The position numbers and the translations under genes are program-made. The notes below the pieces were generated by a model that was given only the letters and a program-made list of their open reading frames with translations, did no database searches and was not told the DNA's origin. Positions 25,717 through 58,339 of a stretch of DNA of 64,000 nt are shown in pieces; position 1 is the stretch's first letter, and each line of letters begins with the position of its first letter. This DNA is from Lentisphaerota bacterium (GTDB lineage Bacteria; Verrucomicrobiota; Lentisphaeria; Victivallales; Victivallaceae). The stretch covers positions 4,243 to 68,242 of the forward strand of contig SUVU01000002.1 of assembly GCA_015061865.1 (NCBI GenBank). Direction: 5' to 3'.

Positions 25717-26135
25717 ATCACCCGCATCCCGATCAGGCGCATGACGCCATCACGGTCACCGAAAAGCAATTGCAGCAGCAGTTGCCGCCGCACTTCACGG
25801 CCCTGCCGGTCAAATTTGACGAAATCCAGCACCCACACCTGATTTACGACCAGCGGGGTCTGCAGATAAGTCAAAAATCTGAAGCCGGTTATTTTGCCGT
25901 AAGCTCCAGTCAGGTTATCGTATGAGGCTTTGAATTTTTCCGCATCGCCGCTGCGCTCGGATTCACCTGCCGCCTGCAGAAACTGCCGGTAATCCCCGGT
26001 TTGGATCGCCATTACGATCGCTTCGCCCTGCCCTCTTGCCAGATCTGAAGTCGTGATCACCGGCGGTAATTCATCCGCCCGCACTCCAGATATTGCCGAC
26101 ATGGTCACAATGAAAAGCAAAACAACTTTTTTCAT
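25713..26135 (-). CDS. Small secreted protein, translationally coupled to the upstream secretin
   Basis: It has a signal peptide MKKVVLLFIVTMSAISGVRA and an ATGA overlap with the stop of the 26132 gene. 140 aa, family not recognised. Confidence 0.55.
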   Translation of the reverse strand: MKKVVLLFIVTMSAISGVRADELPPVITTSDLARGQGEAIVMAIQTGDYRQFLQAAGESERSGDAEKFKASYDNLTGAYGKITGFRFLTYLQTPLVVNQVWVLDFVKFDRQGREVRRQLLLQLLFGDRDGVMRLIGMRVI

Positions 26136-29348: not shown

Positions 29349-31229
29349 TCAAATCCCCCGCGGCACTCCGGCGGCAATAACCCACTCGCCCGGCAGTACT
29401 CTGCCGTTGAGAAAACTGCGGCGGTAATCCCGTTGATGATCACAAACGACCCACAATTCTCCGCCGGAAATATCAAGTATTTCGATCTGCACTTTGCCGT
29501 TGTAAATATTTTCCATCGGCATCATGACCATTTTATACTCATTTTTTCCCGGTGCCGGCGGAGGCAGTTCAAATTCCCGCAACTCCCCGTTGATCCGCAT
29601 GACCAGCGACACCGGCTCATAATTGCACATCATGATCCGCAACTCCGCCGGAACAGTGCCGATCCGGGCAAATTGTTTGCCAATGACCATACCTTTTTTC
29701 ACCGGAATATTCTGCCACCCGCCGAACGGCTGCGGACCATAATCAAAATGCAGTATGTTTTTCCCCTGCAAATCCATGATTATTCCGTCGGGATGAATGG
29801 TTCTCTGCAATGCCGGTTCCATGTCCCGATACCATTCATAACCGCCATTGACCGGTAAAATCCCTAACAGCAATGTTAAAACGATGGTCATTCGGGTCAA
29901 ACGTACTTTGCCGGGCGCCGGATACCTCCAGGCGTTTATCATACTGCATACGGCACCGCCGCCAAAAATTGCCAGCAGCGGCAGCAGCGGTGCTCTGAAG
30001 CGGGATAATATGTAAAACATCACCACTGTCAGATAAAATATCCCCACAAAAGTATATAACAATATCCACCTGCCCCGTTTACATTCTTTTTTGATCCCCG
30101 GCAAAAACCAGAATATTCCAGCTAATCCCAGTGCCAGCAGCACCCGGTTATGCCCCCATGCCAGATATTGCAAAACGAAAGAATTACGGCAGCCGTCATA
30201 TTCCAGAGAAACATTATTCGGGATCTCTCTACCATCCCAGAACAGCAATGCTTTGCGGCACTGCAGCTCGATAAATCCTGCCGGATCGTCGCAAAACCAC
30301 TGCCACATCTGTTCCGGCACCGATACCGCATTGCGGCCTGAAGCATTTGCCATCATCCGCTTGTATGATTCTGAATAATACATCGCCCCTGCCCGTTCCC
30401 ACGGCTCTCTGCCACCGGCAGGCGCATCGATGCCATTGCCGATCGCCAACACCGCATCAGCGGCGGTACTGGCTCCGCACAGGCGCTCTTCAGCGACAGA
30501 ATTACGGATCATAAACGGCAGCTGCACCACGATCATGCAAAACAGAAACAATGCCAGATGCAGCCATGATTTTTTGCGGAATTTGCCACGTTTGAGTGTA
30601 AAAAATGCGATTGCCGGCACCAACATCCAGATATTGCCCCGGGTCAGGATCGCAATTCCGGTAACGGTTCCGGCAGCCAGCCACCATTGCCATTTATCGG
30701 CATCATACGCTTTCAACGTCAGGTATAACAACAATATCAGATGAAAGGTCTGCAAAGTTTCATTCTGGTGATAAGGAACATATAATATCAATGTTGCTGA
30801 AATCGCCGTTAATCCGGCAGCAACCAATCCGGCAGCAGATGAAAAAATTTTGCGCCCGCACCATCCGGTCAGAAACACCGTAGCGGCACTCAGCAGCGAC
30901 TGTACCAAAATTACCGCATAAACCGCCATTTTTGCGCCGCACAGCCAATTTATTGCCGCCAGAAAAACCGCATAATAATAGGGTTGATAATAAAATGTCC
31001 GGGGGAAGTTCCCCGCCGCACACTCCTGCCCCAACTGCATATAAGTAGCTAAATCGCTGGTCTCAGGAGGCGTAAACATATTGTTCATACCGCCGCCGGC
31101 TCTGGACATTTCCCATGCGGCGACCAACCGCAAAATCCAGGCGACAGCGGTGATCAATAGCAGTAAACGGACAAAAAAACCGCCGGGAACACTCTTTCCG
31201 GCGGCTTTTGAAATATCAACGGCTTTCAC
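29349..31229 (-). CDS. GT39/ArnT-like (PMT_2) polytopic membrane glycosyltransferase with a C-terminal soluble domain
   Basis: About 11 TM helices. The first-loop region resembles ArnT/PMT family proteins, and a non-membrane tail of about 170 aa follows. The family call is from architecture and is moderate. Confidence 0.55.
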   Translation of the reverse strand: MKAVDISKAAGKSVPGGFFVRLLLLITAVAWILRLVAAWEMSRAGGGMNNMFTPPETSDLATYMQLGQECAAGNFPRTFYYQPYYYAVFLAAINWLCGAKMAVYAVILVQSLLSAATVFLTGWCGRKIFSSAAGLVAAGLTAISATLILYVPYHQNETLQTFHLILLLYLTLKAYDADKWQWWLAAGTVTGIAILTRGNIWMLVPAIAFFTLKRGKFRKKSWLHLALFLFCMIVVQLPFMIRNSVAEERLCGASTAADAVLAIGNGIDAPAGGREPWERAGAMYYSESYKRMMANASGRNAVSVPEQMWQWFCDDPAGFIELQCRKALLFWDGREIPNNVSLEYDGCRNSFVLQYLAWGHNRVLLALGLAGIFWFLPGIKKECKRGRWILLYTFVGIFYLTVVMFYILSRFRAPLLPLLAIFGGGAVCSMINAWRYPAPGKVRLTRMTIVLTLLLGILPVNGGYEWYRDMEPALQRTIHPDGIIMDLQGKNILHFDYGPQPFGGWQNIPVKKGMVIGKQFARIGTVPAELRIMMCNYEPVSLVMRINGELREFELPPPAPGKNEYKMVMMPMENIYNGKVQIEILDISGGELWVVCDHQRDYRRSFLNGRVLPGEWVIAAGVPRGI

Positions 31230-37510: not shown

Positions 37511-38065
37511 ATGTTATGCGAGAAATGCAAAAAAAATGAAGCCACTGTTCACATGACCCACTATGTATCCGGTAAAAGTGTGACCAAACATCTGTGCGAT
37601 GAGTGCTTCCGTAAAGAAAACGAAAACTCGCCCGTCGAAAATTTCGGCAGCAGTTTTGCTGAAATACTTTTTAACATCAAAAAATTCGCCAGCACCGTAA
37701 AGACCGCCGCTGAAGCGGCTGACACTGCCGACAGCGGCCCGGAATGTCCACGCTGCGGATTGTCATTGAACAAACTCCGCAATTCCAACGGTCAACTTGG
37801 CTGTCCGGAGTGTTATCAGACTTTTAAGGTCATGATCAAAGACACCATCGCCAATATTCAAAGCGGCACGATCCATCTGGGCAAACGCCCTCCGTCCAAA
37901 AAAGCCGTAACTCCGGCACTGCGGGAGGCGGAAATTGCCAAACTTCAGGAGGAGATAAAAAAACTTATTGCAGCAGAGGATTACGAAGCCGCAGCGGTCT
38001 GCCGCGACCGCATCACCGCCTTGCGCACTGCAGAAGAATCGGACCATGACGGAGGCGAAGCATGA
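37511..38065 (+). CDS. mcsA: McsA-like protein (zinc ribbons plus UVR domain)
   Basis: CEKCKK...CDEC and CPRCG...CPECY Cys pairs. The UVR-type helix is IAKLQEEIKKLIAAEDYEAAAVCRDRI. Confidence 0.8.
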   Translation: MLCEKCKKNEATVHMTHYVSGKSVTKHLCDECFRKENENSPVENFGSSFAEILFNIKKFASTVKTAAEAADTADSGPECPRCGLSLNKLRNSNGQLGCPECYQTFKVMIKDTIANIQSGTIHLGKRPPSKKAVTPALREAEIAKLQEEIKKLIAAEDYEAAAVCRDRITALRTAEESDHDGGEA

Positions 38066-39132
38066 TTTACGACAATGTGGAAAACCTGCTTAACCGTCCG
38101 GTCACATTTCTGGATGAATCAGCGCCGGACAGTCAAATCGCCATATCCACCCGCATCCGGCTGGCCCGGAATCTGGCGGATCACCTTTTCCCCTCGCTGG
38201 CAACAGATGATGAATGTACTGCCGTCTGTGACACGATCACTGCGGCGGCAAAAAAGACCACGGCTTTAAGCAAAAGAAATGCCATGTGCTTCACCTCATC
38301 GGAACTGGATGATATCGACCGCAGTATTCTGCTGGAGCGCCGGCTCGCCAGCCCGGAATTTTTCACTGCCGTTCCCGGACGCAGAATATTGGTGTGTCCG
38401 CAGGAAGCATGTTCTCTGATGATAAATGAAGAGGATCAACTCCGGCTGCAAATCCTCCGCCCCGGACTGCAGCTGCGCAAGACCTGGCAGGAGATCAACC
38501 TGCTGGATGACCAGTTGGGCAAAGAACTTGACTTCGCATTCGACGATCAATTCGGTTTTCTGACCAGCTGTCCGACCAATGTCGGTACCGGCTTGCGGGC
38601 TTCGGTGATGCTGCATCTGCCGGCACTGGTGCTGACCGGTCAAATGGAAGCCACTTTGAAAGGTCTTGCCAAACTCCGTATCGAAGTTCGCGGGGTTTAC
38701 GGTGAATTGTCTGACAAATCCGGCAATCTTTTTCAAATTTCCAATCAAGTCACTTTGGGCGAAAGTGAATCCAGAATCATCGACTCGCTGGAAACGATCA
38801 TCAGGCAAATCATTGACAGTGAACTGCGCACGAGAAAAAAACTGCTGCAATCAGATCACAATGCTCTGCTGGATCAAATCGGCAGAGCATATGGCAGATT
38901 GCGTTATTGCTACACTTTGACCGAAAAAGAAGCTCTGGATTCGTTGTCCGGACTGCGTTTGGGAGTAGACCTGGGGCTGTTCAAAGATGTGAATATTGCC
39001 ATGATAAATGAGATGTTTACCGGCATTATGAATGGTCACTTGCAAAAACGTTACGGCAAAAAACTTACAACTGCGGAATGTGATATTTTCCGGGCGGTAT
39101 TCTGCCGGGAAAAATTGCGGCGCAGCGAATAA
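38062..39132 (+). CDS. mcsB: Protein arginine kinase McsB (ATP:guanido phosphotransferase)
   Basis: The phosphagen-kinase active site is CPTNVGTGLRASVM. A 4-nt overlap couples it to mcsA. Confidence 0.9.
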   Translation: MIYDNVENLLNRPVTFLDESAPDSQIAISTRIRLARNLADHLFPSLATDDECTAVCDTITAAAKKTTALSKRNAMCFTSSELDDIDRSILLERRLASPEFFTAVPGRRILVCPQEACSLMINEEDQLRLQILRPGLQLRKTWQEINLLDDQLGKELDFAFDDQFGFLTSCPTNVGTGLRASVMLHLPALVLTGQMEATLKGLAKLRIEVRGVYGELSDKSGNLFQISNQVTLGESESRIIDSLETIIRQIIDSELRTRKKLLQSDHNALLDQIGRAYGRLRYCYTLTEKEALDSLSGLRLGVDLGLFKDVNIAMINEMFTGIMNGHLQKRYGKKLTTAECDIFRAVFCREKLRRSE

Positions 39133-47051: not shown

Positions 47052-47960
47052 ATGGGACTTTCATTATTGATTCTTGCCGCCGGCATGGGCAGCCGTTACG
47101 GCGGACTGAAACAGCTTGACCAGATGGGACCGTCCGGAGAAACCGTGATGGACTATTCCGTTTTTGATGCCATGCGTGCCGGATTCGACCGGGTGATTTT
47201 TGTCATCCGCCGCGATTTTGAAAATGAATTCAAAAATGTGATCGCCAAACGCTACGAAGGCAAAGTCAAAATGGATTTTGCTTTTCAGGATCTCAACGAC
47301 CTGCCCGGTAATTTCACGCCGCCGGCAGACCGGGTAAAACCGTGGGGCACCGGTCACGCCGTTTACGCCGCCAGACATCTGCTCACGGAACCGTTTGCAG
47401 TTATCAATGCCGATGACTTCTACGGTCAGGACAGTTACCGTCAGTTGGCGGCATATTTGAGCAATCCTCCGGCAACGGATAAAGTTCGCGGCTGTATTGC
47501 GGCATTTCAGTTGAGCAACACTTTGAGTGAAAACGGCTCGGTTTCGCGCGGGATCTGCAGCGACGACGGTCAGGGACATCTTGCCAAAGTCGTAGAAAAC
47601 ACTAAAATTTTCCGCCGCCCGGACGGAGTGATCGTCTCGGCAATGGATGACGGCTCTGAAAACGTGCTGACCGGCAACGAACCGGCGTCCATGAATTCCT
47701 GGGGCTTCATGCCGGAAATCATCGGTAATTTGGAAACGCTGTTCACTGAATTTCTTTCTGCGCACGGCACCGAACTCAAAAGCGAATTTTATCTGCCGTT
47801 TGTGGTCGATTCGCTCATCCAGTCCGGTAAAGCCGAAATCACCATGTGTCACAGCCGGGACAGCTGGTTTGGCGTAACGTATCAGGAAGACCGCCCCGGC
47901 GTGCAGAAAGCCCTGCAAAAACTGGTTGATTCAGGGGCGTATCCCCAGCAACTTTTTTAA
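47052..47960 (+). CDS. Sugar-1-phosphate nucleotidyltransferase
   Basis: The N-terminal segment LILAAGMGSRYGGLKQLD is the G-x-G-x-R nucleotide-binding loop. The substrate is not determinable from sequence. Confidence 0.7.
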   Translation: MGLSLLILAAGMGSRYGGLKQLDQMGPSGETVMDYSVFDAMRAGFDRVIFVIRRDFENEFKNVIAKRYEGKVKMDFAFQDLNDLPGNFTPPADRVKPWGTGHAVYAARHLLTEPFAVINADDFYGQDSYRQLAAYLSNPPATDKVRGCIAAFQLSNTLSENGSVSRGICSDDGQGHLAKVVENTKIFRRPDGVIVSAMDDGSENVLTGNEPASMNSWGFMPEIIGNLETLFTEFLSAHGTELKSEFYLPFVVDSLIQSGKAEITMCHSRDSWFGVTYQEDRPGVQKALQKLVDSGAYPQQLF

Positions 47961-47971
47961 GGAGTATCACC

Positions 47972-49069
47972 GTGGCCATACCGTATTCGCAAAAAGATAT
48001 CCGCCGCTTGATCGGCATGTTTGATGTATATGGAGATTTTCTGGTCGGCGCCCCTTTCGGCAACGGCAATGTCAATGATACATTTCAGTTGACTTATGAT
48101 CAGGGCGGTATCCGGCTCCATTACGCATTGCAGCGGATCAACTCTAATGTATTCAAAAATCCGGTACACGTTATGGAAAACGTCGCCAGAGTCACCGATC
48201 ATATTCTGGAAAAAATCCGTACAGCCAAAGCCGAAACCAGAAAACGCACCCTGCGCCTGCTTCATGCGCATGACGGGAAACCGTATGCGTTTGACGATAA
48301 CGGGAATTGCTGGCGGGCATACGTTTTTGTAGAACACGCCCGGGCTTATGAAGTGCTGGAATCTCCGGAGCAGGCGTTCCGGGTCGCTCAGGGATTTGGC
48401 GAATTTCAACAGCAATTGTCGGACTTCAAAGGCAGACTGCATGAAACCATTCCGGATTTTCACAACACTCCCAAGCGGGTGAACGCTCTGGAGGCTGCGA
48501 TAAAAGCCGACTCCTGCAACCGGGTCAAATCAGTTGCCAGAGAAATTGATTTTGTTCTCAGCCGCAAAGATGAATGTGGTAAACTCCTGCAGCTTCATGC
48601 CGAAGGCTCCATTCCGGAACGGATCACTCACAACGATACCAAAGCCAATAATATTCTGATCGATGACCTTTCCGGTGAAGCGGTGTGTGTGATCGATCTT
48701 GACACCGTCATGCCCGGGTTGTCGCTCTATGATTTCGGTGACATGGTACGCAGCGGCACCAACCCTGCCGAAGAAGATGAAGTAAATCTCGACCGGGTCG
48801 GCATGAGATTTGATATGTATGAGGGATTTTTCGACGGTTTTTTGAATACCGCCGGAGCGATTTTGACCGAAGCGGAAAAAGAAATGCTGCCGTTTTCGGC
48901 AAAACTCATCACGTTGGAAATCGGCATGCGCTTTTTGACCGATTACCTGATGGGCGATGTGTACTTCAAAACCAAGCGCCCGAATCAAAATCTTGACCGC
49001 TGCCGGACGCAATTCAAACTGGTTGAGTCTATCGAAGCGCAAATGAATAAAATGATGGCGTTAATGTAA
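47972..49069 (+). CDS. Anomeric sugar kinase of the APH/phosphotransferase fold, N-acetylhexosamine 1-kinase (NahK)-like
   Basis: GNGNVNDTF (nucleotide loop), catalytic HNDTKANNILID and IDLD. At 365 aa it is similar in length to NahK. GTG start. Confidence 0.6.
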   Translation: MAIPYSQKDIRRLIGMFDVYGDFLVGAPFGNGNVNDTFQLTYDQGGIRLHYALQRINSNVFKNPVHVMENVARVTDHILEKIRTAKAETRKRTLRLLHAHDGKPYAFDDNGNCWRAYVFVEHARAYEVLESPEQAFRVAQGFGEFQQQLSDFKGRLHETIPDFHNTPKRVNALEAAIKADSCNRVKSVAREIDFVLSRKDECGKLLQLHAEGSIPERITHNDTKANNILIDDLSGEAVCVIDLDTVMPGLSLYDFGDMVRSGTNPAEEDEVNLDRVGMRFDMYEGFFDGFLNTAGAILTEAEKEMLPFSAKLITLEIGMRFLTDYLMGDVYFKTKRPNQNLDRCRTQFKLVESIEAQMNKMMALM

Positions 49070-49420: not shown

Positions 49421-50041
49421 TCAATATTTAAAAAATAATAAAATCGGCGTCTTGCCCGTACTGCACAAAGTAAATTTATCTGCTTCTACTTCATTCAATG
49501 TCCCGCTGTGCCACCACGGCAGAGCCAGATCGACCAGCGGATATTTCAATCCGGTCGAATTCAATTTCTGCAACGGATCAAAACTGAATATCGAAATCTG
49601 GGTCCCTACCGGACAATCAAACTCCCCTGCTCCGGCAAAAACCTGAAAAAATCCCTGCTCGGTATAGAGACGGCATCCGGAAAAATTTACCGCATTTTCA
49701 GCGAAACGGGATAAATTTCCCAACATGTGATCTTCTCTGGCGCCTGATGCGCCCAACACTGCATTCGGAGCCAACCCCTTTTCGGCGCAAAAACGGAATG
49801 CTTTGGCAAGGTCATTGGTCTCCTGCTCACAGAAATGCACCGCTTTAGCAGCAAAACGCAACTTTGTTTCAGGAGAAACGCTATCCAAATCCCCGACTAT
49901 CCAGTCCGGTTCTCTGCCAAATGCGACCAGTTTATCCGCCGCCCCGTCACAGCAAATCACCATTCCGGCGTTACGAAGCATCGCCAATAACTCACTGCGG
50001 CGCGGGAACTCGCCATCAGCAAGGATTATTACCTCATTCAT
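49421..50041 (-). CDS. thiN: Thiamine pyrophosphokinase
   Basis: Motifs ILADGEFP, VICCDGAA and IVGDLDS. The start overlaps the upstream gene by 8 nt. Confidence 0.75.
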   Translation of the reverse strand: MNEVIILADGEFPRRSELLAMLRNAGMVICCDGAADKLVAFGREPDWIVGDLDSVSPETKLRFAAKAVHFCEQETNDLAKAFRFCAEKGLAPNAVLGASGAREDHMLGNLSRFAENAVNFSGCRLYTEQGFFQVFAGAGEFDCPVGTQISIFSFDPLQKLNSTGLKYPLVDLALPWWHSGTLNEVEADKFTLCSTGKTPILLFFKY

Positions 50042-51395
50042 GGATCACTGAAACCACTTTTTCCGGCGGAGTCAACGCCAACTGCCGCTGCACAGCGGGG
50101 ATCGTCCGCAGAACTTTTTCCACCATCAGCGGCGTGATCGCTCTGGTACACTCGATTTCCCGCGGCGTACCGCTGTGACGCGGACACCAAACCGGAGCAT
50201 TAACGTCAAAAAACAACGTCGGATCGCTCCAGCAGCCGTGGCAATAATTAAAGTTGGTGATCCGGTACGGGGTTGGGAACTCCGCACCCTCCATACTGAA
50301 GCCAGCCAACAGCACCACCGGAATATTACAATCCCATGCCACCCAGGACAAACCACTGGGCAAGCCGATGAAAAAGTCAGCGTGCTGCAGCATGGCAATA
50401 CGGTCGGAAATCGGTAAACGTCCGGTGAAATCTTCTGCCTCCGTGGGAATCGAATAATGTTTCCCGGCAAAATTCAAATCATGTTCACGGTCAATATCCA
50501 TCACCCGGAAACCGATAGATTTCAAAAAACGGATCGCCGTGTTCCACCCATCCGGAAAATTCCAATATTTGGACGGATTAGTTGCCATGCTGGAAATGCA
50601 GACAAACGGCTCTTTGAAAGGACGCGGCGCATCCAAATGCAGCCGGACTTTCAAATACTCATGCGGCAGCCCCAGCATTTGCGAAATAGAGCGCTGCATC
50701 CCGAAGTGCTGATGCGCCACCGGACGCCAACTGGTGCGGTCTTTGGGGAAAGCCGAACAATAATACGAAGCATAACCATCATTCAGCGGCGGACGCTCGC
50801 TGACCGGGATGAATTTCAGTTTCGGGTAAAGATCTCCACACAAACGGATAAACCACTCACCGATCACGCACGTCACATCTGCCTGATGCACCCGGCGAAA
50901 CTCCTCTGCATACGGCATCCAGGCAAAATTTTCGCCCAAACCACCGTCCGGCACCACCACATAAACTTTTTTGCCTTTACAATCAAATTTATGTTCAAAC
51001 AACAGCTCTTTGGTGTCTGCATCCGAAATCCTGACGTGGTAACGCAAAAAATATTTACGGTCACCGACGACCATGCCGCCGCCGTCAAGAGTGCTTTCAT
51101 ACAGCGGCAGATCGGTATCCATATCCATTACCAGCACATGGTAGCGACGTCCAGCCGGTAACAGGAAACGGAAACCGAAAATAAAGTCATATTTTATACC
51201 ATGCGGTGCATCCATGCCCGGGACATCACCGAGTTTAATGGTACACTGGGCATTGCGGGGATCCGGACCGATTTCCGGTCCGATCATCGGAGTTTCAGGC
51301 GCTGCCGTTTGCGGAGCGACCGACAACGACACCGGCATTGGATCTGTTTTTATACCTGCGATAGAAATCGGTTGCGGTTTAAATGAATAACCCAT
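50034..51395 (-). CDS. BAHT-family (TibC/Aah-like) O-heptosyltransferase homologue
   Basis: The N-terminus HGIKYDFIFGFRFLLPAGRRYHVLVMDMD follows the TibC/Aah pattern GI-YDFN-GARVLLP. The GT9-like core is AEDFTGRLPISDRIAMLQHADFFIGLPSGLSWVAWDCNIPVVLLAGFS. The Cys motif is CHGCWSD...WCPRH...ECTR, as in the BAHT iron finger. All matches are from recalled family sequences. Confidence 0.7.
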   Translation of the reverse strand: MGYSFKPQPISIAGIKTDPMPVSLSVAPQTAAPETPMIGPEIGPDPRNAQCTIKLGDVPGMDAPHGIKYDFIFGFRFLLPAGRRYHVLVMDMDTDLPLYESTLDGGGMVVGDRKYFLRYHVRISDADTKELLFEHKFDCKGKKVYVVVPDGGLGENFAWMPYAEEFRRVHQADVTCVIGEWFIRLCGDLYPKLKFIPVSERPPLNDGYASYYCSAFPKDRTSWRPVAHQHFGMQRSISQMLGLPHEYLKVRLHLDAPRPFKEPFVCISSMATNPSKYWNFPDGWNTAIRFLKSIGFRVMDIDREHDLNFAGKHYSIPTEAEDFTGRLPISDRIAMLQHADFFIGLPSGLSWVAWDCNIPVVLLAGFSMEGAEFPTPYRITNFNYCHGCWSDPTLFFDVNAPVWCPRHSGTPREIECTRAITPLMVEKVLRTIPAVQRQLALTPPEKVVSVIHE

Positions 51396-51415: not shown

Positions 51416-54400
51416 TTAATCGCTGAGATAATCGATCCGGTTGATAAACAATCTGCCGGTCGCCGGATCGCGGACAAATGTCACCATCGCCTTGACTTCA
51501 CCGGTAATTTCGTCAAAATACACATTTAAATCATCGTTATCGGAGTGTTCAAGCGCATCAAATACGCCCAGTTCGCACTTTTTAGCCACCGTGCCGTCCT
51601 CAATTTCATCAACAGTAGAACCATCAATTGCAGTAAACTTGCCTTTGCTGGTTTCGCTGGTGGCTCTGACCTGCACGCCTTTGCGATCCTTAATGCTCTG
51701 GGCAACAATAACGACCTGAACCATTGCCGGCGAAGTGGTTTCAGCACCGAGCAGATTGATCGTTTTGCCGATGATCTCCTCCTGCGCCGCATCGTTATCA
51801 GCAAGAGTTACTTTGCCAAAAACATTTGCCAATGTCCCACTACTGACAAAATTAAGAAACTCCGCCCTGCTCCCGAATGGACGCAGATTGCTGGCAGCTT
51901 TCATTTTGGTAAACACACTTTCATCAGAGGTGACATCTTTTTCATTACTATTACCGCCAACAGCAGGAAATTGTCCGTTAGTACGGGTGGATTCTTTGAT
52001 AAAATCCCCCATATTCTGATTGTAAACCACGCCATTGAAAAGAGCATTGACGATGTTGATATCCAAATCGTTTTTGCCGATCAGGTTGACGTTTATTTTT
52101 CCGTATGAATCCACCCGGTCAGTCATTTTGATCTGCTCCAGCAGAGCGCCGTCACCGTCACTGTATTTCGTCCCGGCATATTTCCAATCTTTATCCTCAT
52201 CAGAGCCTTCGGCATTAAATTTCGGCTCAAAACTATCTGCGGAAAAATCATCCGAATTTCCCGGATTGCCGGCCTTTTTGATATTCAAAGTCTGCCATCT
52301 CAAACCGCGATGGATCACCCCGATTTCCCACGGACTCATCATCGGAGCATTGCGGATATAGGCTGTTGACAAACGGTTTTCGCCTCCCGTGTACGCCGGT
52401 TCGGCGACGGTTTCTTTATCAAAACTGCCGCTGCTGTTCTGCGGGCTGAATTTAGGATCGCCGGAATTGACCAAGCCGCTATCTCCGGCATCATCAATAT
52501 CCATTGCTGACTTGATTTCGGCAAGTGAAGGATTTTTGAAATCAGCCAATTTCACCATTTTGACATTACTTGTCATCCAGTCAGCACCGTAAAGATTCTG
52601 CCGGGGATCATAATTTTTGCCTCCACCGATCAACACTCCGGCGCGCTTGGCATCATTATCAGGAACCAAACTGATTTCCGTATCTGCACCTGTCGCACGT
52701 TCCCATTTGATCTCCTCAAAATGCCCGGCGAAATCCACCCCGATTTCATTATTGGAATTTTTCTCTTTGCCGGTCAAAACGAGACGGCGCGGTTTTATTG
52801 AAACTTTTTTCAGGTCAACTTTCTCCAAAACCACATCCTCGGCCTGATTGGAAACAGTGATATTATACAATTGATCTTTCAATGCGCTTTCCAATTGGCT
52901 CAACGATGTAATATTTTGCGTACCGGTCGTCTCAAAATTTTCAAACTTGACCTTTTCAGGAAGCCCATTACCGGTTCCAGTGCGGAAATCGCCCAATGCT
53001 ACTGAAAAATTGATATTATTCACCGTACATTTCAAATACTGCCAATCAGCGTCCGACTCATTTTTAGCATAAAACAGCGGATATGGATTCGTGCCGGTTT
53101 GATTGTCAAGTTTGTTTTTGGCAAACGGAACCGGCACATTTTTAACCTCTCCGGCATTGTTTTTCCAAACCTCTGCTTCAGGAGCCATCGTCAAATCTGC
53201 CGCAAAAGCACTTTTAAAGGAATTGGCATCCTCGATTTTGACATCCACCGTCGCCGTCCGGCTGTACTTCACCTCATCAATGGTTTCATCAAATGAGAAT
53301 TTGACTTTTTTCAGCGTAAGTGCTTTAGGTGCAAATGTGACTTCGGTTTTTCCGAAATCTACGTATCCATTCATAAACTTATCATCACTGCTGATTGCAG
53401 AAAATGCTTCATCCGGCTTGAAGTCATAAATATTTGCCAATTTCAAAACCGGAAGTGCCTGAAGTCTCACCGCCAGAGAATAAGAGCCGTCTCCAGTAGA
53501 GGTGGTTTTTATTTCCGTTGCAGCAGATTCCGCCGGCACGATACCGAAATTCATTCCGAACTCATACAGATACGGAGTTTTTTCATTACCGGTGAATGTC
53601 GGTATTTTATCGGCAAAATCAGTAGTATAATCAGCAGGCAAATCCTGCAGCCACTTTTCTGCGTTCACATCAGAGGTGGGAATACTGTCTTCATCACAGT
53701 AATCGTTGAAGTTAGCTGCAATCTGTTTGCGCCATGCCATCATGTCCACTTCGCCGCCATCCGCACTGCGGAATGAAGCCCCTGATTCCTCGGCATGACC
53801 GATCAAGCGCAAAAACGGCAAGCCGGATTTTTCAGAAATATCCTTATCTTTTTGCGGCTCTTTGGACGGCAGGTAAAGCAAACTTCCCAACGTCAGTTTA
53901 TGGACCGCAGTTTTGCTGTTTTTATCGCTGTCAGCAGAAATTCCCAATCTGCCGTACCACTTGTCACTGCCGTAGTCGCCCTCGGAAATATTGAAACGCA
54001 TCAATTGCTGTTTCGGCCCTTTTTTGTCCTTTTGATAAACGTATACTTCCGGAAAGATCGGAAATGGTTTGGCAACCGTTCCATATCCGTCCTCTTCGGT
54101 AAAATCAGGGATCAACCATGTTTTGATCCAAGTCTGCACTGCAGTATCGTCTTTTAAGTAAGAAAACAAACTTTCGAAGTCGTTGATTTTGGTATCCGGA
54201 GTAATTGCCTGAATTTTGTCATTAATAAAATCCGGGGTTCCATCATTTTCATCCAAATACACCTCATCGATCTCTCTGCCCCAGCGATGATTACTGGCTC
54301 TAAAGGTGGCGTCGTCAGGATCGATTTTTTCAACCTTACCGCGCATAAACACCGGAGCCAAAATCTGGGCGCTGGATGTCACTACCTGCCAGGCGGCACG

Positions 54401-54922
54401 ACCGACGATCTCCCGATCATTACCGTCTTTTTTATTGTAGAAAAAGACCCAACTGCCATCCCATGCATCTTTCGCACCTTTTTCTTTTTTAAATCTGGCA
54501 TTATATGCCACAGCAAAGCCTTTTTCGACCAGAGAGCTGTCCTCAAGCAGCAGCATTTTGGATGATGAATTAGTTTTTTTCAACAAACCATCGGTAATCA
54601 TGGTACCGCTGTCAGCGCTTTTCCCGTCAGAATCGTATGCCCCATAGCTGTAAATTTTATCAAAGTTATCCGGAGCATCATCATTATCGATCGCCTGCTG
54701 CTGGTAAACCATGATTGATGCGGCAGCCCGATTGGCAGCAGAAAGCACCAGCATCCGAGCCTGAGTACGGGAACTGTTGTTGCGGGCGACTTTTTTGAAA
54801 ATCAACGCATTACCGAGAAATGCCAGCCCCACAGCCAGCATCAACCCCAGCAAACCGATGGCAAAAACCAGAGCGACACCGCTTTCGCGCCTGTTATAGT
54901 ATTTGAATTTGTGTTTCATCAT
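51416..54922 (-). CDS. Giant GspK-like minor pseudopilin (1168 aa)
   Basis: The N-terminus NRRESGVALVFAIGLLGLMLAVGLAFL resembles a GspK/PilX-type anchor. The C-terminal 300 aa or so carry SPWEIGVIHRG and GKINVNLIG, which are GspK-like. About 780 aa of unassigned sequence lies between them. An ATGA overlap couples it to the upstream gene. Confidence 0.65.
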   Translation of the reverse strand: MMKHKFKYYNRRESGVALVFAIGLLGLMLAVGLAFLGNALIFKKVARNNSSRTQARMLVLSAANRAAASIMVYQQQAIDNDDAPDNFDKIYSYGAYDSDGKSADSGTMITDGLLKKTNSSSKMLLLEDSSLVEKGFAVAYNARFKKEKGAKDAWDGSWVFFYNKKDGNDREIVGRAAWQVVTSSAQILAPVFMRGKVEKIDPDDATFRASNHRWGREIDEVYLDENDGTPDFINDKIQAITPDTKINDFESLFSYLKDDTAVQTWIKTWLIPDFTEEDGYGTVAKPFPIFPEVYVYQKDKKGPKQQLMRFNISEGDYGSDKWYGRLGISADSDKNSKTAVHKLTLGSLLYLPSKEPQKDKDISEKSGLPFLRLIGHAEESGASFRSADGGEVDMMAWRKQIAANFNDYCDEDSIPTSDVNAEKWLQDLPADYTTDFADKIPTFTGNEKTPYLYEFGMNFGIVPAESAATEIKTTSTGDGSYSLAVRLQALPVLKLANIYDFKPDEAFSAISSDDKFMNGYVDFGKTEVTFAPKALTLKKVKFSFDETIDEVKYSRTATVDVKIEDANSFKSAFAADLTMAPEAEVWKNNAGEVKNVPVPFAKNKLDNQTGTNPYPLFYAKNESDADWQYLKCTVNNINFSVALGDFRTGTGNGLPEKVKFENFETTGTQNITSLSQLESALKDQLYNITVSNQAEDVVLEKVDLKKVSIKPRRLVLTGKEKNSNNEIGVDFAGHFEEIKWERATGADTEISLVPDNDAKRAGVLIGGGKNYDPRQNLYGADWMTSNVKMVKLADFKNPSLAEIKSAMDIDDAGDSGLVNSGDPKFSPQNSSGSFDKETVAEPAYTGGENRLSTAYIRNAPMMSPWEIGVIHRGLRWQTLNIKKAGNPGNSDDFSADSFEPKFNAEGSDEDKDWKYAGTKYSDGDGALLEQIKMTDRVDSYGKINVNLIGKNDLDINIVNALFNGVVYNQNMGDFIKESTRTNGQFPAVGGNSNEKDVTSDESVFTKMKAASNLRPFGSRAEFLNFVSSGTLANVFGKVTLADNDAAQEEIIGKTINLLGAETTSPAMVQVVIVAQSIKDRKGVQVRATSETSKGKFTAIDGSTVDEIEDGTVAKKCELGVFDALEHSDNDDLNVYFDEITGEVKAMVTFVRDPATGRLFINRIDYLSD

Positions 54923-55674
54923 TCACCACTCCTGTGTCCCAGCAAAATTGCCCGGCGGAACGTATAACCATATTCTGAAAAAATTTCTTTCTTCTTATCA
55001 TCATCTCCATCTTTCCACCGCAGATACGCTTCTTTGTTATCAAGCAGAGAAATCTCCACCTCGATCATATACGGCGGAGTGATAAAAGATGAGCCATCTT
55101 TGAATGCAGATGAAACACTTTCCTGCGGCTTCAGTTCCCAGTTATTGCCATTTTTGACTGCAAAAAAGCCATGAATTTTAAAATCAGTCACGTTATCTAT
55201 CAATTCAACTGTTTCCGAACTTCCAAGTTTGCTGCTGACAGCATCCCAAGCTGTTATAGCAGCATCCTGATTTTTGAACGGCGGAAAATGTGCAATAAAC
55301 TTGCGGCTTTCCTCTTTACCCGCATATATTCTCATCACCAGCGTACCGGCATTGGCATCACGCTCAAATTTCAGAAACCGCAAATAATATTCATCATCAC
55401 GGTTATCCATCGGCATGGAGGTAGCGAACCAAATTTCGTTATCTTTCATGCTGAACGGAACATTTTCATAGTAGACAAGCGTCTGCATCCGCACCGCAAC
55501 AAATTCCATCGCAGTCCGGGCATCGGCAAAAGCATTGGTCTTTTGCTCCGACCTCACCCACAACTGCTGCGCTCCGGAAAACAATCGCATCGATACCAGC
55601 AAAAGTATGCTGAAAACCGCCATTGCGGCAAGCAGCTCCACCAGTGTAAATTTTTTATATTGTAATTTTCTCAT
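54919..55674 (-). CDS. GspJ-like minor pseudopilin
   Basis: N-terminus MRKLQYKKFTLVELLAAMAVFSILLL (prepilin-type methylation motif FTLVE). 251 aa. Confidence 0.65.
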   Translation of the reverse strand: MRKLQYKKFTLVELLAAMAVFSILLLVSMRLFSGAQQLWVRSEQKTNAFADARTAMEFVAVRMQTLVYYENVPFSMKDNEIWFATSMPMDNRDDEYYLRFLKFERDANAGTLVMRIYAGKEESRKFIAHFPPFKNQDAAITAWDAVSSKLGSSETVELIDNVTDFKIHGFFAVKNGNNWELKPQESVSSAFKDGSSFITPPYMIEVEISLLDNKEAYLRWKDGDDDKKKEIFSEYGYTFRRAILLGHRSGE

Positions 55675-56360
55675 GGCGTCCCCTGGGTCGGCAACACATA
55701 GTGTTCATTAAAAATTTCAAACCGGAAATAACTTTTTTCACGTTCTTCGTATGGTACTTCTGCCGGATAACTGAGTTCCAGCACCAGCGGCAGCAGAACA
55801 TCATCCATATTAACTTTGCCAACTTTTTCGTACAACATATATTTCGGCTCTGCATTGTCTTTGGCAATGTAAAAGAACTCCTTTGTCATGCTGTCTGTAT
55901 CGACATAAACTCTGGCAATCGCAGAAAAATCCACAAATCTCTCATCTTCCGGTCCGGACATCTGGCGTACCAGGAAAACATTTTTTTTATTTTTAGACCG
56001 CAGCAAAGATGCGTTTTCTATTTTATCGTGATCATCTTTACCGCTTTTCAGCAATTCCGGAACTTCCCACTGGCTGTCGTCCCCGCCACTGACGGCATTA
56101 TTGCCGCTGACATCGCTGATCTCATCTTTCACATCTGCCCATGTCCCAAAACCGGAGCCGCTGGCAGTATCCATATTGATCTGCGCCCGGACACCGGAAA
56201 TAACCAACTCTGCCAAATCAGCAATACTATTGTCGGCGGCGGCATTTTTATGCGCAGACAACCCGGCAGGAAACAGCACAAATACACTCGATAATCCCAG
56301 AGAGATCACCACAATTGCGAGCATCACCTCGACCATGTTGAAATATCTTTTATTCAGCAT
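55671..56360 (-). CDS. GspI-like minor pseudopilin (degenerate leader)
   Basis: N-terminus MLNKRYFNMVEVMLAIVVISLGLSSVF, with Glu at +5 relative to Phe. 229 aa. Confidence 0.55.
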   Translation of the reverse strand: MLNKRYFNMVEVMLAIVVISLGLSSVFVLFPAGLSAHKNAAADNSIADLAELVISGVRAQINMDTASGSGFGTWADVKDEISDVSGNNAVSGGDDSQWEVPELLKSGKDDHDKIENASLLRSKNKKNVFLVRQMSGPEDERFVDFSAIARVYVDTDSMTKEFFYIAKDNAEPKYMLYEKVGKVNMDDVLLPLVLELSYPAEVPYEEREKSYFRFEIFNEHYVLPTQGTP

Positions 56361-56363
56361 AAA

Positions 56364-57005
56364 TCAATCCTCTTTGTATTTCACTCTGCCGGTCACAAAG
56401 TTGAGAATCAAAGTAACCTTATTGTCCTCATTGGGGAAGTCATATTTTGCCCGCTCGTCATCGGTATTTTCCCCGGAATACGCCGCTTCTGTGAACGAAA
56501 ACTCCAAGTTCCGGTCACCGACCACACCGCCATACGGACTGAATATCACCGCCTTACGGTTTTGGTCATCTCCCAGAGATGTCCAATCCTCATCTTCAGA
56601 AACCGATGAATCCAATTTCAAATCTTTCAAATTGGTAACCAATTGCAAAAATCTCGCTCCGTCTGCGGCATTGCGCCAGGAACTGCCCGGAACCCAACCG
56701 AAAAAATGTCCTTCTTTATCCACAAACGCCAAACGGTAGCCGCCATCACAATACGGCTGCAATCTTTTGTCAGCTTTGCCATAGTACTGCGGAATGACCA
56801 TCGCCACATATTTGCGTGATGAAACCGCTTGCGCCTGCGCCATTTCCAACCCGAGTTTAAAATCCGATGCCGCCTGATCGACTTTACTGCCGAACATCAT
56901 CCGGCTGAATGCCGGTACAAACATGGCGATCAACGCCCCGGCAATTGCCACCACGGCGATCATTTCGATCAGCGTGAACGACTTTTTTATCTTTACAGTT
57001 TTCAT
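56364..57005 (-). CDS. GspH-like minor pseudopilin
   Basis: N-terminus MKTVKIKKSFTLIEMIAVVAIAGALIAM after trimming to the ATG at 57005. The longer ORF would run through the promoter and terminator. Confidence 0.65.
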   Translation of the reverse strand: MKTVKIKKSFTLIEMIAVVAIAGALIAMFVPAFSRMMFGSKVDQAASDFKLGLEMAQAQAVSSRKYVAMVIPQYYGKADKRLQPYCDGGYRLAFVDKEGHFFGWVPGSSWRNAADGARFLQLVTNLKDLKLDSSVSEDEDWTSLGDDQNRKAVIFSPYGGVVGDRNLEFSFTEAAYSGENTDDERAKYDFPNEDNKVTLILNFVTGRVKYKED

Positions 57006-57039
57006 TATGGAATTTCCCCAATATTTCACTATCGGCGAT

Positions 57040-57068
57040 ACTATAAACTGCAACTGCACTTTTTTCAA
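57040..57068 (-). promoter_or_regulatory. Sigma70-like promoter of the pseudopilin operon: TTGAAA, 17-nt spacer, TATAGT
   Basis: On the minus strand, the -35 is at 57068-57063 and the -10 at 57045-57040, directly downstream of a terminator. Confidence 0.5.
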
Positions 57069-57100
57069 TCCGATTATTGATTTTTTCGCAAAAAAAACAC

Positions 57101-57130
57101 AAAAAAAGCGTATCCGTTGTCCGGATACGC
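57101..57130 (-). terminator. Rho-independent terminator
   Basis: The minus strand reads GCGTATCCG-GACAA-CGGATACGC followed by TTTTTTT. Confidence 0.85.
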
Positions 57131-57145
57131 CATTTTTCACCGTTT

Positions 57146-58339
57146 TCACTTGTCCCAACTGGTATTGCCGAGAACACCTTCATTGAAAAACACCGCCTTG
57201 CAGCCCATTTCTTTCAGACATTCTGCGGCACACTCCAAACGCTGCAGGTGATCCGGCAGGTAATTGGGGTAATACGGGAACGTATACTGCTCATGGCTGG
57301 CGGCATTAAATACCTCAAAACCGCTTTTTTCGGCTCTGGCGGCAACTGCCTCATAACGTTTCGGAATCTCATCCAGCGGCACCAGATTGCAGCAGACACT
57401 GTTTTGTCCAAAAAAGAACAGATCAATCAAAGGATCATAATACACCGATGATTGGGCGAGATAATTCCGGGGTTCGTAAAAACCGTAATGCAGATTCAAC
57501 CCTTCCGTTTCCGGATTGCGGTCGACTCCGGAAGCAGAACGCTTTTCAATTGCCGCCATATTGCCGCCTTTCTGACGGTCGGCAAGACTCGGTCCGCCCA
57601 TCACCCGGGGATGCAGGTTATTGCTATACGCTCTGGTGCCGCGCCGGATCATCTCCTGCGCCACGGCCGGATGGATATTAGCCCAGTGAATAACTATCGG
57701 CGGCACGAAACTCCCCTCCCCGGCGAAACGGATGATCTCATTCTGCACCATATCCCAATCTTTGCCGAACTCCTCTGCAGATGCTTCGCAGTAGGGACGG
57801 TCGGGAAACTCACTGTACGCATGAAACGAAAACTTCAGCCAATCGGCATTATCCTGAAATTCACTTTTCCAGGTATCAGGCATGTCTTTCAGCAGAAATT
57901 CATGATGCGCATTGTGATAAAAGGTATTAAGGGTGAATTTCGTTCCAAATTTGCGGTGGATATTTCTCAAGCCGCCCAGATAAAAGTGGTCAAACGCACT
58001 GGCAGGACGCTCTTTTGCCAGATCGGTAAAAGTAAAAATATGATCGTCGATATAAAAATCATTGCGCCGGAACGATTTTTTATCCCAAACCAGTTTCAAC
58101 TCCTGGCTGTAATTGCCATACGGCGTAACCGCAGTTGCCGTAACGGTATTGATTTTTTCAGTCAAAGCGATTTGAGCAGAAAAATTCCGTCCGCACATTT
58201 CCGCCGTTATTCCGTTTATTTTCACCGGACAACCCAATTCAGAAATACCGCTGATTTCAACGGTCAATGCTGATTCGGTTTCAGTACCGTGATTATGGTT
58301 AAGCACCGCTCCCTGCCGATGACTGGTGATTTCCAACAT
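57146..58339 (-). CDS. Hypothetical cytoplasmic protein (N-terminal beta-sandwich-like region plus a carbohydrate-enzyme-like C-terminal domain)
   Basis: A long ORF bounded by terminators on both sides. No signal peptide and no recognised catalytic motif. Confidence 0.5.
   Translation of the reverse strand: MLEITSHRQGAVLNHNHGTETESALTVEISGISELGCPVKINGITAEMCGRNFSAQIALTEKINTVTATAVTPYGNYSQELKLVWDKKSFRRNDFYIDDHIFTFTDLAKERPASAFDHFYLGGLRNIHRKFGTKFTLNTFYHNAHHEFLLKDMPDTWKSEFQDNADWLKFSFHAYSEFPDRPYCEASAEEFGKDWDMVQNEIIRFAGEGSFVPPIVIHWANIHPAVAQEMIRRGTRAYSNNLHPRVMGGPSLADRQKGGNMAAIEKRSASGVDRNPETEGLNLHYGFYEPRNYLAQSSVYYDPLIDLFFFGQNSVCCNLVPLDEIPKRYEAVAARAEKSGFEVFNAASHEQYTFPYYPNYLPDHLQRLECAAECLKEMGCKAVFFNEGVLGNTSWDK

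Follow-up and report, generated by a model that had tools for sequence, protein, structure and literature searches.

To our knowledge, the characterized O-heptosyltransferases of the BAHT (TibC/Aah-like) family all come from proteobacterial pathogens and are partners of autotransporter adhesins. In TibC the iron finger is a 1Fe-0S centre with four cysteines, and two hydrophobic residues at the thumb tip (F265 and V266) are needed for the active dodecamer. Like the BAHTs, HMW1C acts on its adhesin in the cytoplasm before export; O-glycosylation of pilins by PglL and PilO/TfpO is periplasmic and uses lipid-linked glycans, and we know of no pilin or pseudopilin that is heptosylated in the cytoplasm. 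BAHT genes usually adjoin the gene of their substrate (PMC4358343).

The BAHT gene analysed here, found in a 64-kb stretch of DNA (the window), is a new orphan variant within this known enzyme family. Its host is a Lentisphaerae commensal, whereas those of TibC and Aah are proteobacterial pathogens, and it belongs to a whole BAHT clade of gut and rumen commensal Lentisphaerae in which no canonical substrate is encoded next door.

Family, fold and active-site residues of the BAHT

The 453-aa product scored 386.5 bits on TIGR04414, the NCBIfam equivalog for the 'autotransporter strand-loop-strand O-heptosyltransferase' (cutoff 200 bits; E 1e-115; positions 3–374 of 374), and 49 bits (cutoff 27) on the Pfam profile of the TibC-type N-terminal β-barrel (TibC_1st, PF21129). 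The TibC chains 4RB4/4RAP aligned to aa 56–431 with an E of 1e-92 and ~40% identity. Its AF2 model (pLDDT 81.7) superimposed on TibC (4RB4/4RAP) with a TM of 0.94 and an rmsd of 2.2 Å, compared with a TM of 0.58 for WaaF and 0.45–0.55 for WaaC. These family and fold matches are far above chance and, judged by sequence and model, the protein is a genuine BAHT-family (TibC/Aah) enzyme, as the initial annotation had proposed in preference to a WaaC/WaaF-type GT9. The family N-terminal block, GT-B core and Cys-rich segment that it had described were likewise present, all of the quoted motifs (GIKYDFIFGFRFLLP, HVLVMDMD, FTGRLPISDRIAMLQHADFFIGLPSGLSWVAWDCNIPVV, CHGCW, WCPRH and ECTR) being found in the ORF. 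An LPS-type GT9 assignment was rejected, the PF01075 match being weak (21.4 bits, below the cutoff of 22) and restricted to a partial stretch; WaaC and WaaF share the GT-B fold and use ADP-heptose as donor, but lack the N-terminal barrel, thumb and iron finger.

The N-terminal β-barrel, GT-B core, predicted β-hairpin thumb and four-Cys iron finger follow one another in the same order as in TibC and Aah. The window protein differs from these in a disordered, clade-specific extension (aa 1–57, with a conserved IGPEIGPDPRN motif at aa 38–48) that precedes the barrel (aa ~58–147, with modelled strands at aa 68–147) and the core. The thumb hairpin was modelled at aa 306–315 (strands 306–309 and 312–315), and the residues aligned with F265/V266 of TibC at its tip are G311/K312, which vary across the clade; F309 adjoins the tip. 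The sugar-binding residues T272, K276, R332 and W351 (TibC Thr226, Lys230, Arg286 and Trp305) are invariant across the clade, P346 (TibC P300) is the conserved TibC-type stereoselectivity residue, and the predicted iron-finger cysteines C385, C388, C404 and C416 (TibC C339, C342, C358 and C370) are kept in 120/120 homologs. The sugar-binding residues and the four cysteines of TibC are thus conserved, and at the position of the catalytic base E155 replaces Asp110, with the carboxylate kept. This column is Asp in 115 of the 120 homologs and Glu in the window BAHT and in all six other loci where a BAHT gene adjoins that of the giant protein described below (BIG), the Glu being confined to this BIG-linked subclade and one homolog of no known context (P0055). 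Such a restriction suggests a functional specialization tied to that context.

The pseudopilin-type cassette and its giant last member

The BAHT gene lies between those of BIG and a thiamine diphosphokinase (TPK) on the minus strand (Table 1). The terminator-like and promoter-like signals at the upstream end mark the probable start of a transcription unit pp264–pp229–pp251–BIG–BAHT–TPK, and the BIG and BAHT genes appear, from their spacer, to be co-transcribed. For pp264, the true start is likely Met52 (about 57005), which gives an N-terminus of MKTVKIKKS/FTLIEM (the slash, here and in Table 1, separates positions −1 and +1). The terminator-like hairpin comes after an upstream gene encoding a 397-aa protein for which we found no family or PDB match.

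Table 1. Features of the BAHT locus, with positions in the window.
Feature	Position	Strand	Remarks
Thiamine diphosphokinase (TPK), 206 aa	49421..50041	minus	8-nt overlap with BAHT stop
BAHT-family (TibC/Aah-like) O-heptosyltransferase gene	50034..51395	minus	ATG-started ORF, 453 aa; profile, TibC and model matches
BIG–BAHT spacer, 20 nt, TAAACTTTGAGGATATAAAA	51396..51415	minus	GAGGA ribosome-binding site; no terminator
BIG, 1168-aa giant GspK-like / Verru_Chthon-cassette-A-like minor pseudopilin	51416..54922	minus	Real ORF
pp251, 251-aa prepilin-type protein, KK/FTLVELL, GspJ-like / Verru_Chthon cassette C-like	54919..55674	minus	
pp229, 229-aa prepilin-like protein, RY/FNMVEV, PilV/GspI-like N-terminus	55671..56360	minus	
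pp264, GspH-like / Verru_Chthon cassette D-like pseudopilin	56364..57158	minus	Listed ORF 264 aa
Terminator-like hairpin (57131–57107), then promoter-like site (57068–57040)	57040..57131	minus	Consensus matches only

BIG, which the initial annotation had rightly described as a giant pseudopilin-like protein, has a prepilin-like N-terminal segment (ESG/VALVFAIGLLGLMLAV) in which position −1 is Gly and position +5 is not Glu; within this segment (ESG/VALVFAIGLL...), G15, A17, L18, F20 and A21 are invariant among 25 homologs. A single N-terminal transmembrane helix is predicted, and the model (pLDDT 71.6) has an N-terminal helix at aa 14–79. The window protein had no match to NF037980 or TIGR02600 at E ≤ 1; across the family of 25 members, 21 gave a weak match to GspK (best 2e-5) and eight to cassette A (best 6e-5), all below the curated cutoffs. 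A whole-chain Foldseek search against the PDB returned nothing meaningful (TM about 0.05) and a profile search against the PDB returned no relative. Most loci that extend far enough upstream keep the gene order pp264–pp229–pp251–BIG, even at identities as low as 27%, and BIG is, on gene order and sequence likeness, the last gene closing a conserved H-I-J-K-like minor-pseudopilin cassette. As in GspH-I-J-K of type II secretion and in the Verru_Chthon cassette D-B-C-A, three small prepilin-type genes are followed by a large last member without Glu at +5, and window genes gave weak HMM matches to GspH/cassette D and GspJ/cassette C. In contrast to those pseudopilins, position −1 of the small ones in the window is S, K or Y and not G, and BIG differs from GspK in being 3–4 times larger and in having no fold or sequence relative in these PDB searches. 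We also considered BIG as a cryptic β-helix or repeat protein and rejected this, as it has no internal repeats, its Ser+Thr content (13.4%) is ordinary and its model consists of long-stranded sheets, not a solenoid.

Linked and unlinked acceptors

No autotransporter barrel or AIDA/TIGR04415-repeat protein was detectable within the window, in agreement with the initial annotation and in contrast to TibC and Aah. A search for a hidden autotransporter or target-repeat gene (tblastn and phmmer, 20 AIDA-repeat/barrel queries) returned none in the window or in loci L001–L039, the sole exception among these flanks being L030, where an AIDA-repeat/barrel-type match lies about 8 kb from the BAHT gene. 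The reading that we favour, at an even chance, is that the BAHT is a functional cytoplasmic protein O-heptosyltransferase of a Lentisphaerae-specific subfamily that no longer has the usual linkage to autotransporter or strand-loop-strand-repeat substrates; its acceptor would be unlinked, would not be an AIDA-type autotransporter and would not be revealed by the gene neighbourhood. In the enzyme, the conserved T272/K276/R332/W351 pocket would bind ADP-heptose, the D-glycero-D-manno isomer being the donor predicted from the TibC-type Pro346; the carboxylate at 155 (Glu here, Asp in TibC) would activate a Ser/Thr hydroxyl of the protein acceptor while the latter is still in the cytoplasm, and the four-Cys iron finger would keep the oligomer together. 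Glu at the base and GK in place of FV at the thumb tip make this activity and the oligomeric state less certain. None of the annotated ORFs of the window encodes a step of the ADP-heptose pathway.

Alternatively, BIG or a small pseudopilin of the cassette may be heptosylated by the BAHT of this subclade in the cytoplasm, ahead of membrane insertion, yielding a glycosylated pseudopilus or pilus tip. We regard a pseudopilin substrate as doubtful, and consider it unlikely that the Glu155 subclade was recruited to the minor-pseudopilin cassette for cytoplasmic O-heptosylation of BIG or its partner pseudopilins. Consistent with a pseudopilin substrate are the short BIG–BAHT spacer, with its ribosome-binding site and no terminator, the restriction of Glu155 to the BIG-linked subclade and P0055, and the habit of BAHT genes of neighbouring their substrate gene. 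Adjacency also held, with gaps of 6–43 nt, in all seven loci of this subclade (the window, L001–L003 and L085–L087), which span 66–98% identity for BAHT and 38–68% for BIG, and the pair is kept in L087 although the downstream gene there differs.

This adjacency is, however, confined to that one BAHT subclade. A BAHT gene follows BIG in 6/48 BIG-family loci with enough downstream sequence (not an unbiased frequency, since L085–L087 were picked as the closest BIG homologs) and is absent in the other 42; an unbiased scan of metagenome loci gave 0/78. Conversely, BIG is absent next to the clade BAHT in 29/35 loci with enough upstream sequence. The ORF calls in the relatives' loci are crude and sometimes picked antisense frames. 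BAHT is missing from the BIG-family cassettes of L081–L084 and L088, as it is from those of all 78 metagenome loci. In L081 and L088, which by TPK identity rank with L001 and L002 in closeness to the window, BIG is joined straight to the TPK gene (gap 3–8 nt). The BAHT-linked BIGs are not monophyletic in an NJ tree that is poorly resolved for so divergent a protein, and no Ser/Thr columns specific to them, which would signal co-evolution, were found; BIG falls to 37–44% identity where BAHT stays at 90–94%, and it has neither the β-helix nor the strand-loop-strand repeats that BAHTs recognize. Membrane insertion of pseudopilins through SRP/Sec is co-translational and would leave little time for cytoplasmic glycosylation. 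The place of BAHT in the pseudopilin operon is therefore lineage-specific and hardly more informative than the equally tight linkage of TPK, which is functionally unrelated, and because of this BIG, which the initial annotation had seen as the obvious candidate, is a somewhat less likely acceptor than a protein whose gene lies elsewhere in the genome. Were the pseudopilin link true, a type IV filament subunit would for the first time be seen to undergo BAHT-type heptosylation, a new modification for type II secretion and type IV filament biology, and acceptor recognition by BAHTs would reach beyond β-helical autotransporter passengers.

Selection on the BAHT bears on an unlinked acceptor as well. 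Its dN/dS is 0.016–0.036, where TPK has 0.12 and BIG about 0.2, at a dS equal to that of its neighbours (several dS values being saturated), and purifying selection on it is stronger than on the adjacent housekeeping gene. Taken with a clade that has no canonical neighbour, this constraint implies that an important target of protein heptosylation lies outside type V secretion. Recent horizontal transfer was rejected as the source of the 90–98% BAHT identity on the same comparison of dS values, several of them saturated.

Other contexts of the clade and its relatives

Five BAHTs of other Lentisphaerae (L056, L058, L060, L062 and L063; ~38% identity), of the same phylum and family as the window BAHT, lie directly downstream of 460–750-aa target-repeat proteins that carry TIGR04415/AIDA repeats without a β-barrel. 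Target-repeat neighbours thus occur beside BAHTs of ~38–42% identity, whereas they are absent in the window clade, whose members share at least 50%. These barrel-less proteins carried no prepilin leaders, which might have tied BAHT substrates to pilins. Substrate adjacency is thus also seen in Lentisphaerae, an observation that counts against an unlinked acceptor.

Elsewhere in the clade, BAHTs adjoin radical-SAM/SPASM, PqqD, ABC and β-helix genes or have a GT2 as neighbour or fusion partner; the pseudopilin operon, the GT2 fusions and the PqqD/radical-SAM clusters offer three concrete candidate contexts. A GT2 is fused to or beside the BAHT in at least seven loci, a PqqD-like RRE protein is encoded directly beside it in L020, L022/L169, L026 and L034/L167 (the order in L167 being rSAM-SPASM, BAHT, PqqD, NTP_transf_5, Beta_helix), and ABC exporters adjoin it in L169 and L170. 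A further conserved ORF upstream of some clade BAHTs ('cluster 9') was considered as a PqqD homolog and rejected by hhalign. Such neighbours would fit a clade in which heptose is added to a small ribosomal peptide or to a β-helix protein, or which starts a short heptose-containing glycan, with the window copy acting likewise on an unlinked target. We hold this to be improbable, as the association is limited to a minority of loci, none of the PqqD, radical-SAM, GT2 and ABC partners is seen around the window gene or elsewhere in the BIG-linked subclade, and no precursor peptide was found.

A last reading draws on BimC of Burkholderia, a BAHT-family protein that shares the fold and iron finger and has a membrane-anchored surface protein as partner; according to PMC11499645, citing Lu et al. 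(2015), its iron finger binds the transmembrane domain of BimA in polar targeting. BimA is an adjacently encoded autotransporter, whereas the partner of the window BAHT, if any, would be a pseudopilin. A comparable non-catalytic role, in which the iron finger binds a transmembrane helix, the N-terminal one of BIG or that of some other membrane protein, and the BAHT serves as a localization or assembly factor, would be in keeping with the single N-terminal helix of BIG, the Asp-to-Glu change at the base and the loss of the hydrophobic thumb-tip pair of the active TibC dodecamer, but is highly improbable. Neither the four sugar-binding residues nor the donor-selectivity Pro varies within the clade, the catalytic residues are fully maintained, with Glu as a chemically competent base, and a dN/dS of 0.02–0.04 across the whole catalytic domain points to a maintained active site. 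In addition, a GT2 glycosyltransferase is fused to or encoded after the BAHT in many clade members, as in a glycosylation pathway.

Identity and constraint of the heptosyltransferase

The initial annotation's TibC/Aah-like autotransporter O-heptosyltransferase (BAHT) was recovered with its coordinates (ATG start, 453 aa) and all quoted motifs intact, the strand being minus, and its family identity was confirmed. It matched the NCBIfam equivalog TIGR04414 ('autotransporter strand-loop-strand O-heptosyltransferase') over the full profile length (386.5 bits; cutoff 200; E 1e-115), Pfam TibC_1st above threshold, and the TibC crystal-structure chains across aa 56-431 (E 1e-92). An AF2 model built with 17 homologs (pLDDT 81.7) superposed on TibC with a TM of 0.94 (rmsd 2.2 Å) but reached only 0.45-0.58 with the LPS heptosyltransferases WaaF and WaaC, and a WaaC/WaaF-type GT9 placement was therefore rejected. 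Every one of its closest relatives (50-98% identity) belongs to a gut or rumen Lentisphaeria/Victivallaceae MAG; below this clade (Lentisphaerae BAHTs at least 50% identical to it) identity falls to ~40%, with BAHTs of Burkholderia, enterobacteria and Negativicutes. We found no paper linking heptosyltransferases with Lentisphaerae.

Functional residues from the TibC structure (eLife 2014; PMC4358343) were mapped onto the protein, and the expected conservation held for sugar binding and the iron finger. TibC T226, K230, R286 and W305 align with T272, K276, R332 and W351, and the finger cysteines are C385, C388, C404 and C416; across 120 homologs no variation occurs at the Lys, Arg, Trp and four Cys positions, and the Thr226 position is Thr or Ser. 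Pro346 occupies the stereoselectivity position, as does Pro in TibC; it is retained throughout the clade, and ADP-D,D-heptose would accordingly be the predicted donor. Two features differed, however: the catalytic base Asp110 of TibC is replaced by Glu155, and the thumb-tip pair F265/V266, needed for the active TibC dodecamer (PMC4358343), aligns with G311/K312; even so, a hairpin remains in the prediction, with F309 adjoining its tip. Unlike TibC, the protein also has a disordered extension (residues 1-57), within which, despite its variability, IGPEIGPDPRN (aa 38-48) is conserved in and specific to the Lentisphaerae clade; this motif, which TibC lacks, may serve in docking.

Against four related genomes the BAHT gene showed a dN/dS of 0.016-0.036, compared with ~0.12 for the adjacent thiamine diphosphokinase (TPK) and ~0.16-0.23 for the giant neighbour BIG, at a dS (0.8-1.5) comparable with the flanking genes. 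The 90-98% BAHT protein identity is therefore the product of purifying selection and not of recent transfer, and the gene appears functional and highly constrained. Between the same genomes the housekeeping gene product TPK is 65-84% and the pseudopilin cassette 37-79% identical, an extreme contrast within one operon, and the cassette resembles a surface structure that diversifies rapidly. The protein is thus a genuine BAHT-family enzyme under strong constraint, and belongs to an orphan subfamily specific to Lentisphaerae.

The pseudopilin cassette and the candidate acceptor

BIG (1168 aa) had no Pfam or NCBIfam match of its own and no relative was found in the PDB, but it belongs to a family of at least 142 Lentisphaerae proteins of 1050-1290 aa. 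Its N-terminus (...ESG/VALVFAIGLLGLMLAV, slash before +1) shows Gly at -1, lacks Glu at +5 and has G15, A17, L18, F20 and A21 as invariant positions; this stretch is the sole hydrophobic segment, and the model has a 66-residue N-terminal helix. T2SS_GspK matched weakly in 21 of 25 family members and Verru_Chthon cassette protein A in eight. The three genes upstream (pp264, pp229 and pp251) encode prepilin-type N-termini with weak GspH/cassette-D, PilV/GspI and GspJ/cassette-C matches, and the four-gene order ending in BIG is kept down to 27% identity at most loci with enough upstream sequence. These N-termini, the GspK-type matches and the conserved order support the earlier description 'giant pseudopilin-like', BIG being a putative GspK-like protein at the end of an H-I-J-K-like cassette, with all matches below curated cutoffs. 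The small proteins, here and in related loci, carry S, Y or K at -1 instead of the canonical Gly, and their processing by prepilin peptidase may be atypical or absent. The BAHT ATG follows the BIG stop after 20 nt that contain a GAGGA ribosome-binding site but no terminator, the BAHT overlaps TPK by 8 nt, and the first pseudopilin gene is preceded by a strong terminator-like hairpin and a promoter-like site; judged from these sequence features, pp264-pp229-pp251-BIG-BAHT-TPK are likely co-transcribed.

BIG, which had been proposed as the obvious candidate substrate, is a somewhat less likely acceptor than a protein encoded elsewhere. What stands of that proposal is the tight adjacency in one subclade (the window and L001-3 and L085-87), where the BAHT is embedded at the end of the GspHIJK-like cassette and has a Glu catalytic base: the BIG-BAHT junction measures 6-43 nt in 7/7, and the Glu (motif PDGGLGENFAW) occurs in 7/7 but in none of 39 further loci where the motif could be read. 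The set of 120 homologs contains only one more case, P0055, for which the upstream context is truncated; the change was probably a single evolutionary event, yet coincides with the change of context. L087 keeps the pair (BAHT 66%, BIG 38%, upstream gene 50% identical) though its downstream gene is PcRGLX-like and not TPK, and adjacency is normally informative for this family (PMC4358343; also the Lentisphaerae target-repeat neighbours).

The adjacency is, however, lineage-limited. BIG lies upstream of the BAHT in only 6 of the 35 clade loci whose upstream sequence extends to 3.6 kb or more. The same six account for every BAHT downstream of BIG at the 48 loci that contain the BIG C-terminus plus 1.4 kb or more beyond it, while an unbiased metagenome scan gave 0/78 BIG loci with a BAHT. 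At L081 and L088, which equal L001 and L002 in closeness to the window by TPK identity (70-71%), BIG is directly followed by TPK (gap 3-8 nt), S21 and an amidohydrolase, which shows the cassette present and maintained where no BAHT adjoins it. The linkage of TPK to the cassette is as tight as that of the BAHT, and operon membership here thus does not imply shared function. TibC tracks a beta-helix (PMC4358343), whereas BIG has neither repeats nor a beta-solenoid and an ordinary Ser+Thr content (13% vs 21-22% in target-repeat proteins). BAHT-linked BIGs are not monophyletic, have no specific Ser/Thr positions in common, and drop to 37-44% identity where the BAHT remains at 90-94%. Pseudopilins are moreover inserted co-translationally, leaving little opportunity for a cytoplasmic enzyme. 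Heptosylation of BIG is thus rather doubtful, but cheap and worthwhile to try by experiment; a 2026 chemoproteomic study of DAEC reported, at discovery level, many heptosylated non-autotransporter proteins (PMC13417296), so heptosylation beyond autotransporters is no longer unprecedented as a general idea. A non-glycosylating role like that of the BAHT-family protein BimC, whose iron finger acts on a partner's transmembrane domain (PMC11499645), is only a minor rival because the catalytic pocket is fully conserved.

Genomic contexts of the clade and the window

BAHTs of Citrobacter, Escherichia and Anaerovibrio (~38-42% identity) adjoin autotransporters with TIGR04415/AIDA repeats and a beta-barrel. 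Other Lentisphaerae BAHTs (~38%; L056, L058, L060, L062, L063) lie directly 3' of 460-750-aa target-repeat proteins in which no autotransporter barrel, signal peptide or prepilin leader was found; these share the N-terminus M(L)IPYQYN(K/R)MAAG. Neither the window nor the clade has a target-repeat neighbour, one L030 repeat protein ~8 kb away excepted, and 'BAHT without an autotransporter' is therefore correct as a clade-wide property.

Among 139 neighbouring ORFs at 34 clade loci we counted Radical_SAM 12 times (nine KamA-like), GT2 five, GT9 and SPASM three each, and PqqD, ABC and DUF1559 two each, while pilin, T2SS and autotransporter families did not recur. No genomic partner is thus constant across the clade, whose only recurring themes are glycosylation-pathway and RiPP-like partners. 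GT2 partners, fused or adjacent, suggest that the heptose is extended or that glycosylation is a two-enzyme pathway. PqqD-like genes (RiPP recognition element) directly adjoin the BAHT at four distinct loci, L167/L168 included, where RiPP-like or beta-helix-protein heptosylation may occur; no precursor peptide was identified there. ABC exporters flank the BAHT at L169 and L170. The annotated ORFs of the 64-kb window yielded no gmhA, gmhB or hldE. At three clade loci a GT9 heptosyltransferase gene neighbours the BAHT, a hint that these organisms use heptose.

Coordinates of features in the window and at related loci
Feature	Position	Remarks
pp264	56364-57158	KKS/FTLIEM
pp229	55671-56360	RY/FNMVEV
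pp251	54919-55674	KK/FTLVEL
Terminator-like hairpin	57131-57107
Promoter-like site	57068-57040
BIG	51416-54922
BAHT	50034-51395	minus strand
IGPEIGPDPRN motif	51251-51284
TPK	49421-50041
Tandem secretin-domain genes	26132-27793, 27809-29260
PMT_2 glycosyltransferase	29349-31229	GT-C, ArnT/PMT-like
McsA, McsB	37511-38065, 38062-39132	protein-arginine kinase pair
NTP_transferase, APH-family kinase	47052-47960, 47972-49069	resembles anomeric sugar kinase + nucleotidyltransferase (AmgK/MurU, LicA/LicC)
Target-repeat proteins next to Lentisphaerae BAHTs	L056:8397-9920, L058:8206-9906, L060:7226-8929, L062:7687-9888, L063:184-1998, L065:197-2437	TIGR04415/AIDA repeats
Clade BAHTs fused to C-terminal GT2	L007:9902-13069, L013:967-4089, L020:1716-4109, L025:2302-4428
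GT2 gene after clade BAHT	L018:11250-13283, L169:9665-10702
Radical-SAM/SPASM, BAHT, PqqD, NTP_transf_5, Beta_helix operon	L167/L168:6958-11947
PqqD-like genes abutting BAHT	L020:1456-1728, L022:9558-9827 (=L169:7657-7914), L026:9405-9956
Arg/Cys-rich ORF	L009:9485-9790, L010:2936-3244, L012:9421-9804, L015:9390-9785, L037:5090-5491	101-133 aa, ends ...VLGWRL

At five loci a conserved Arg/Cys-rich ORF, with no family match and not PqqD-like, directly precedes a clade BAHT in the same orientation; it could represent a genuine small protein or else conserved non-coding sequence. Within the window, the secretin and PMT_2 genes could be a periplasmic glycosylation route tied to secretion or pilus machinery; at L088 a PMT_2 gene also lies just upstream of the pseudopilin cassette. 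The NTP_transferase/APH-kinase pair is a second indel near the BAHT: in the window and L085 it separates S21 from the amidohydrolase, whereas at L081, L086 and L088 it is missing from that place. The McsA/McsB system is best known from Firmicutes; the McsB here scored 377 bits, just under the equivalog cutoff of 385.
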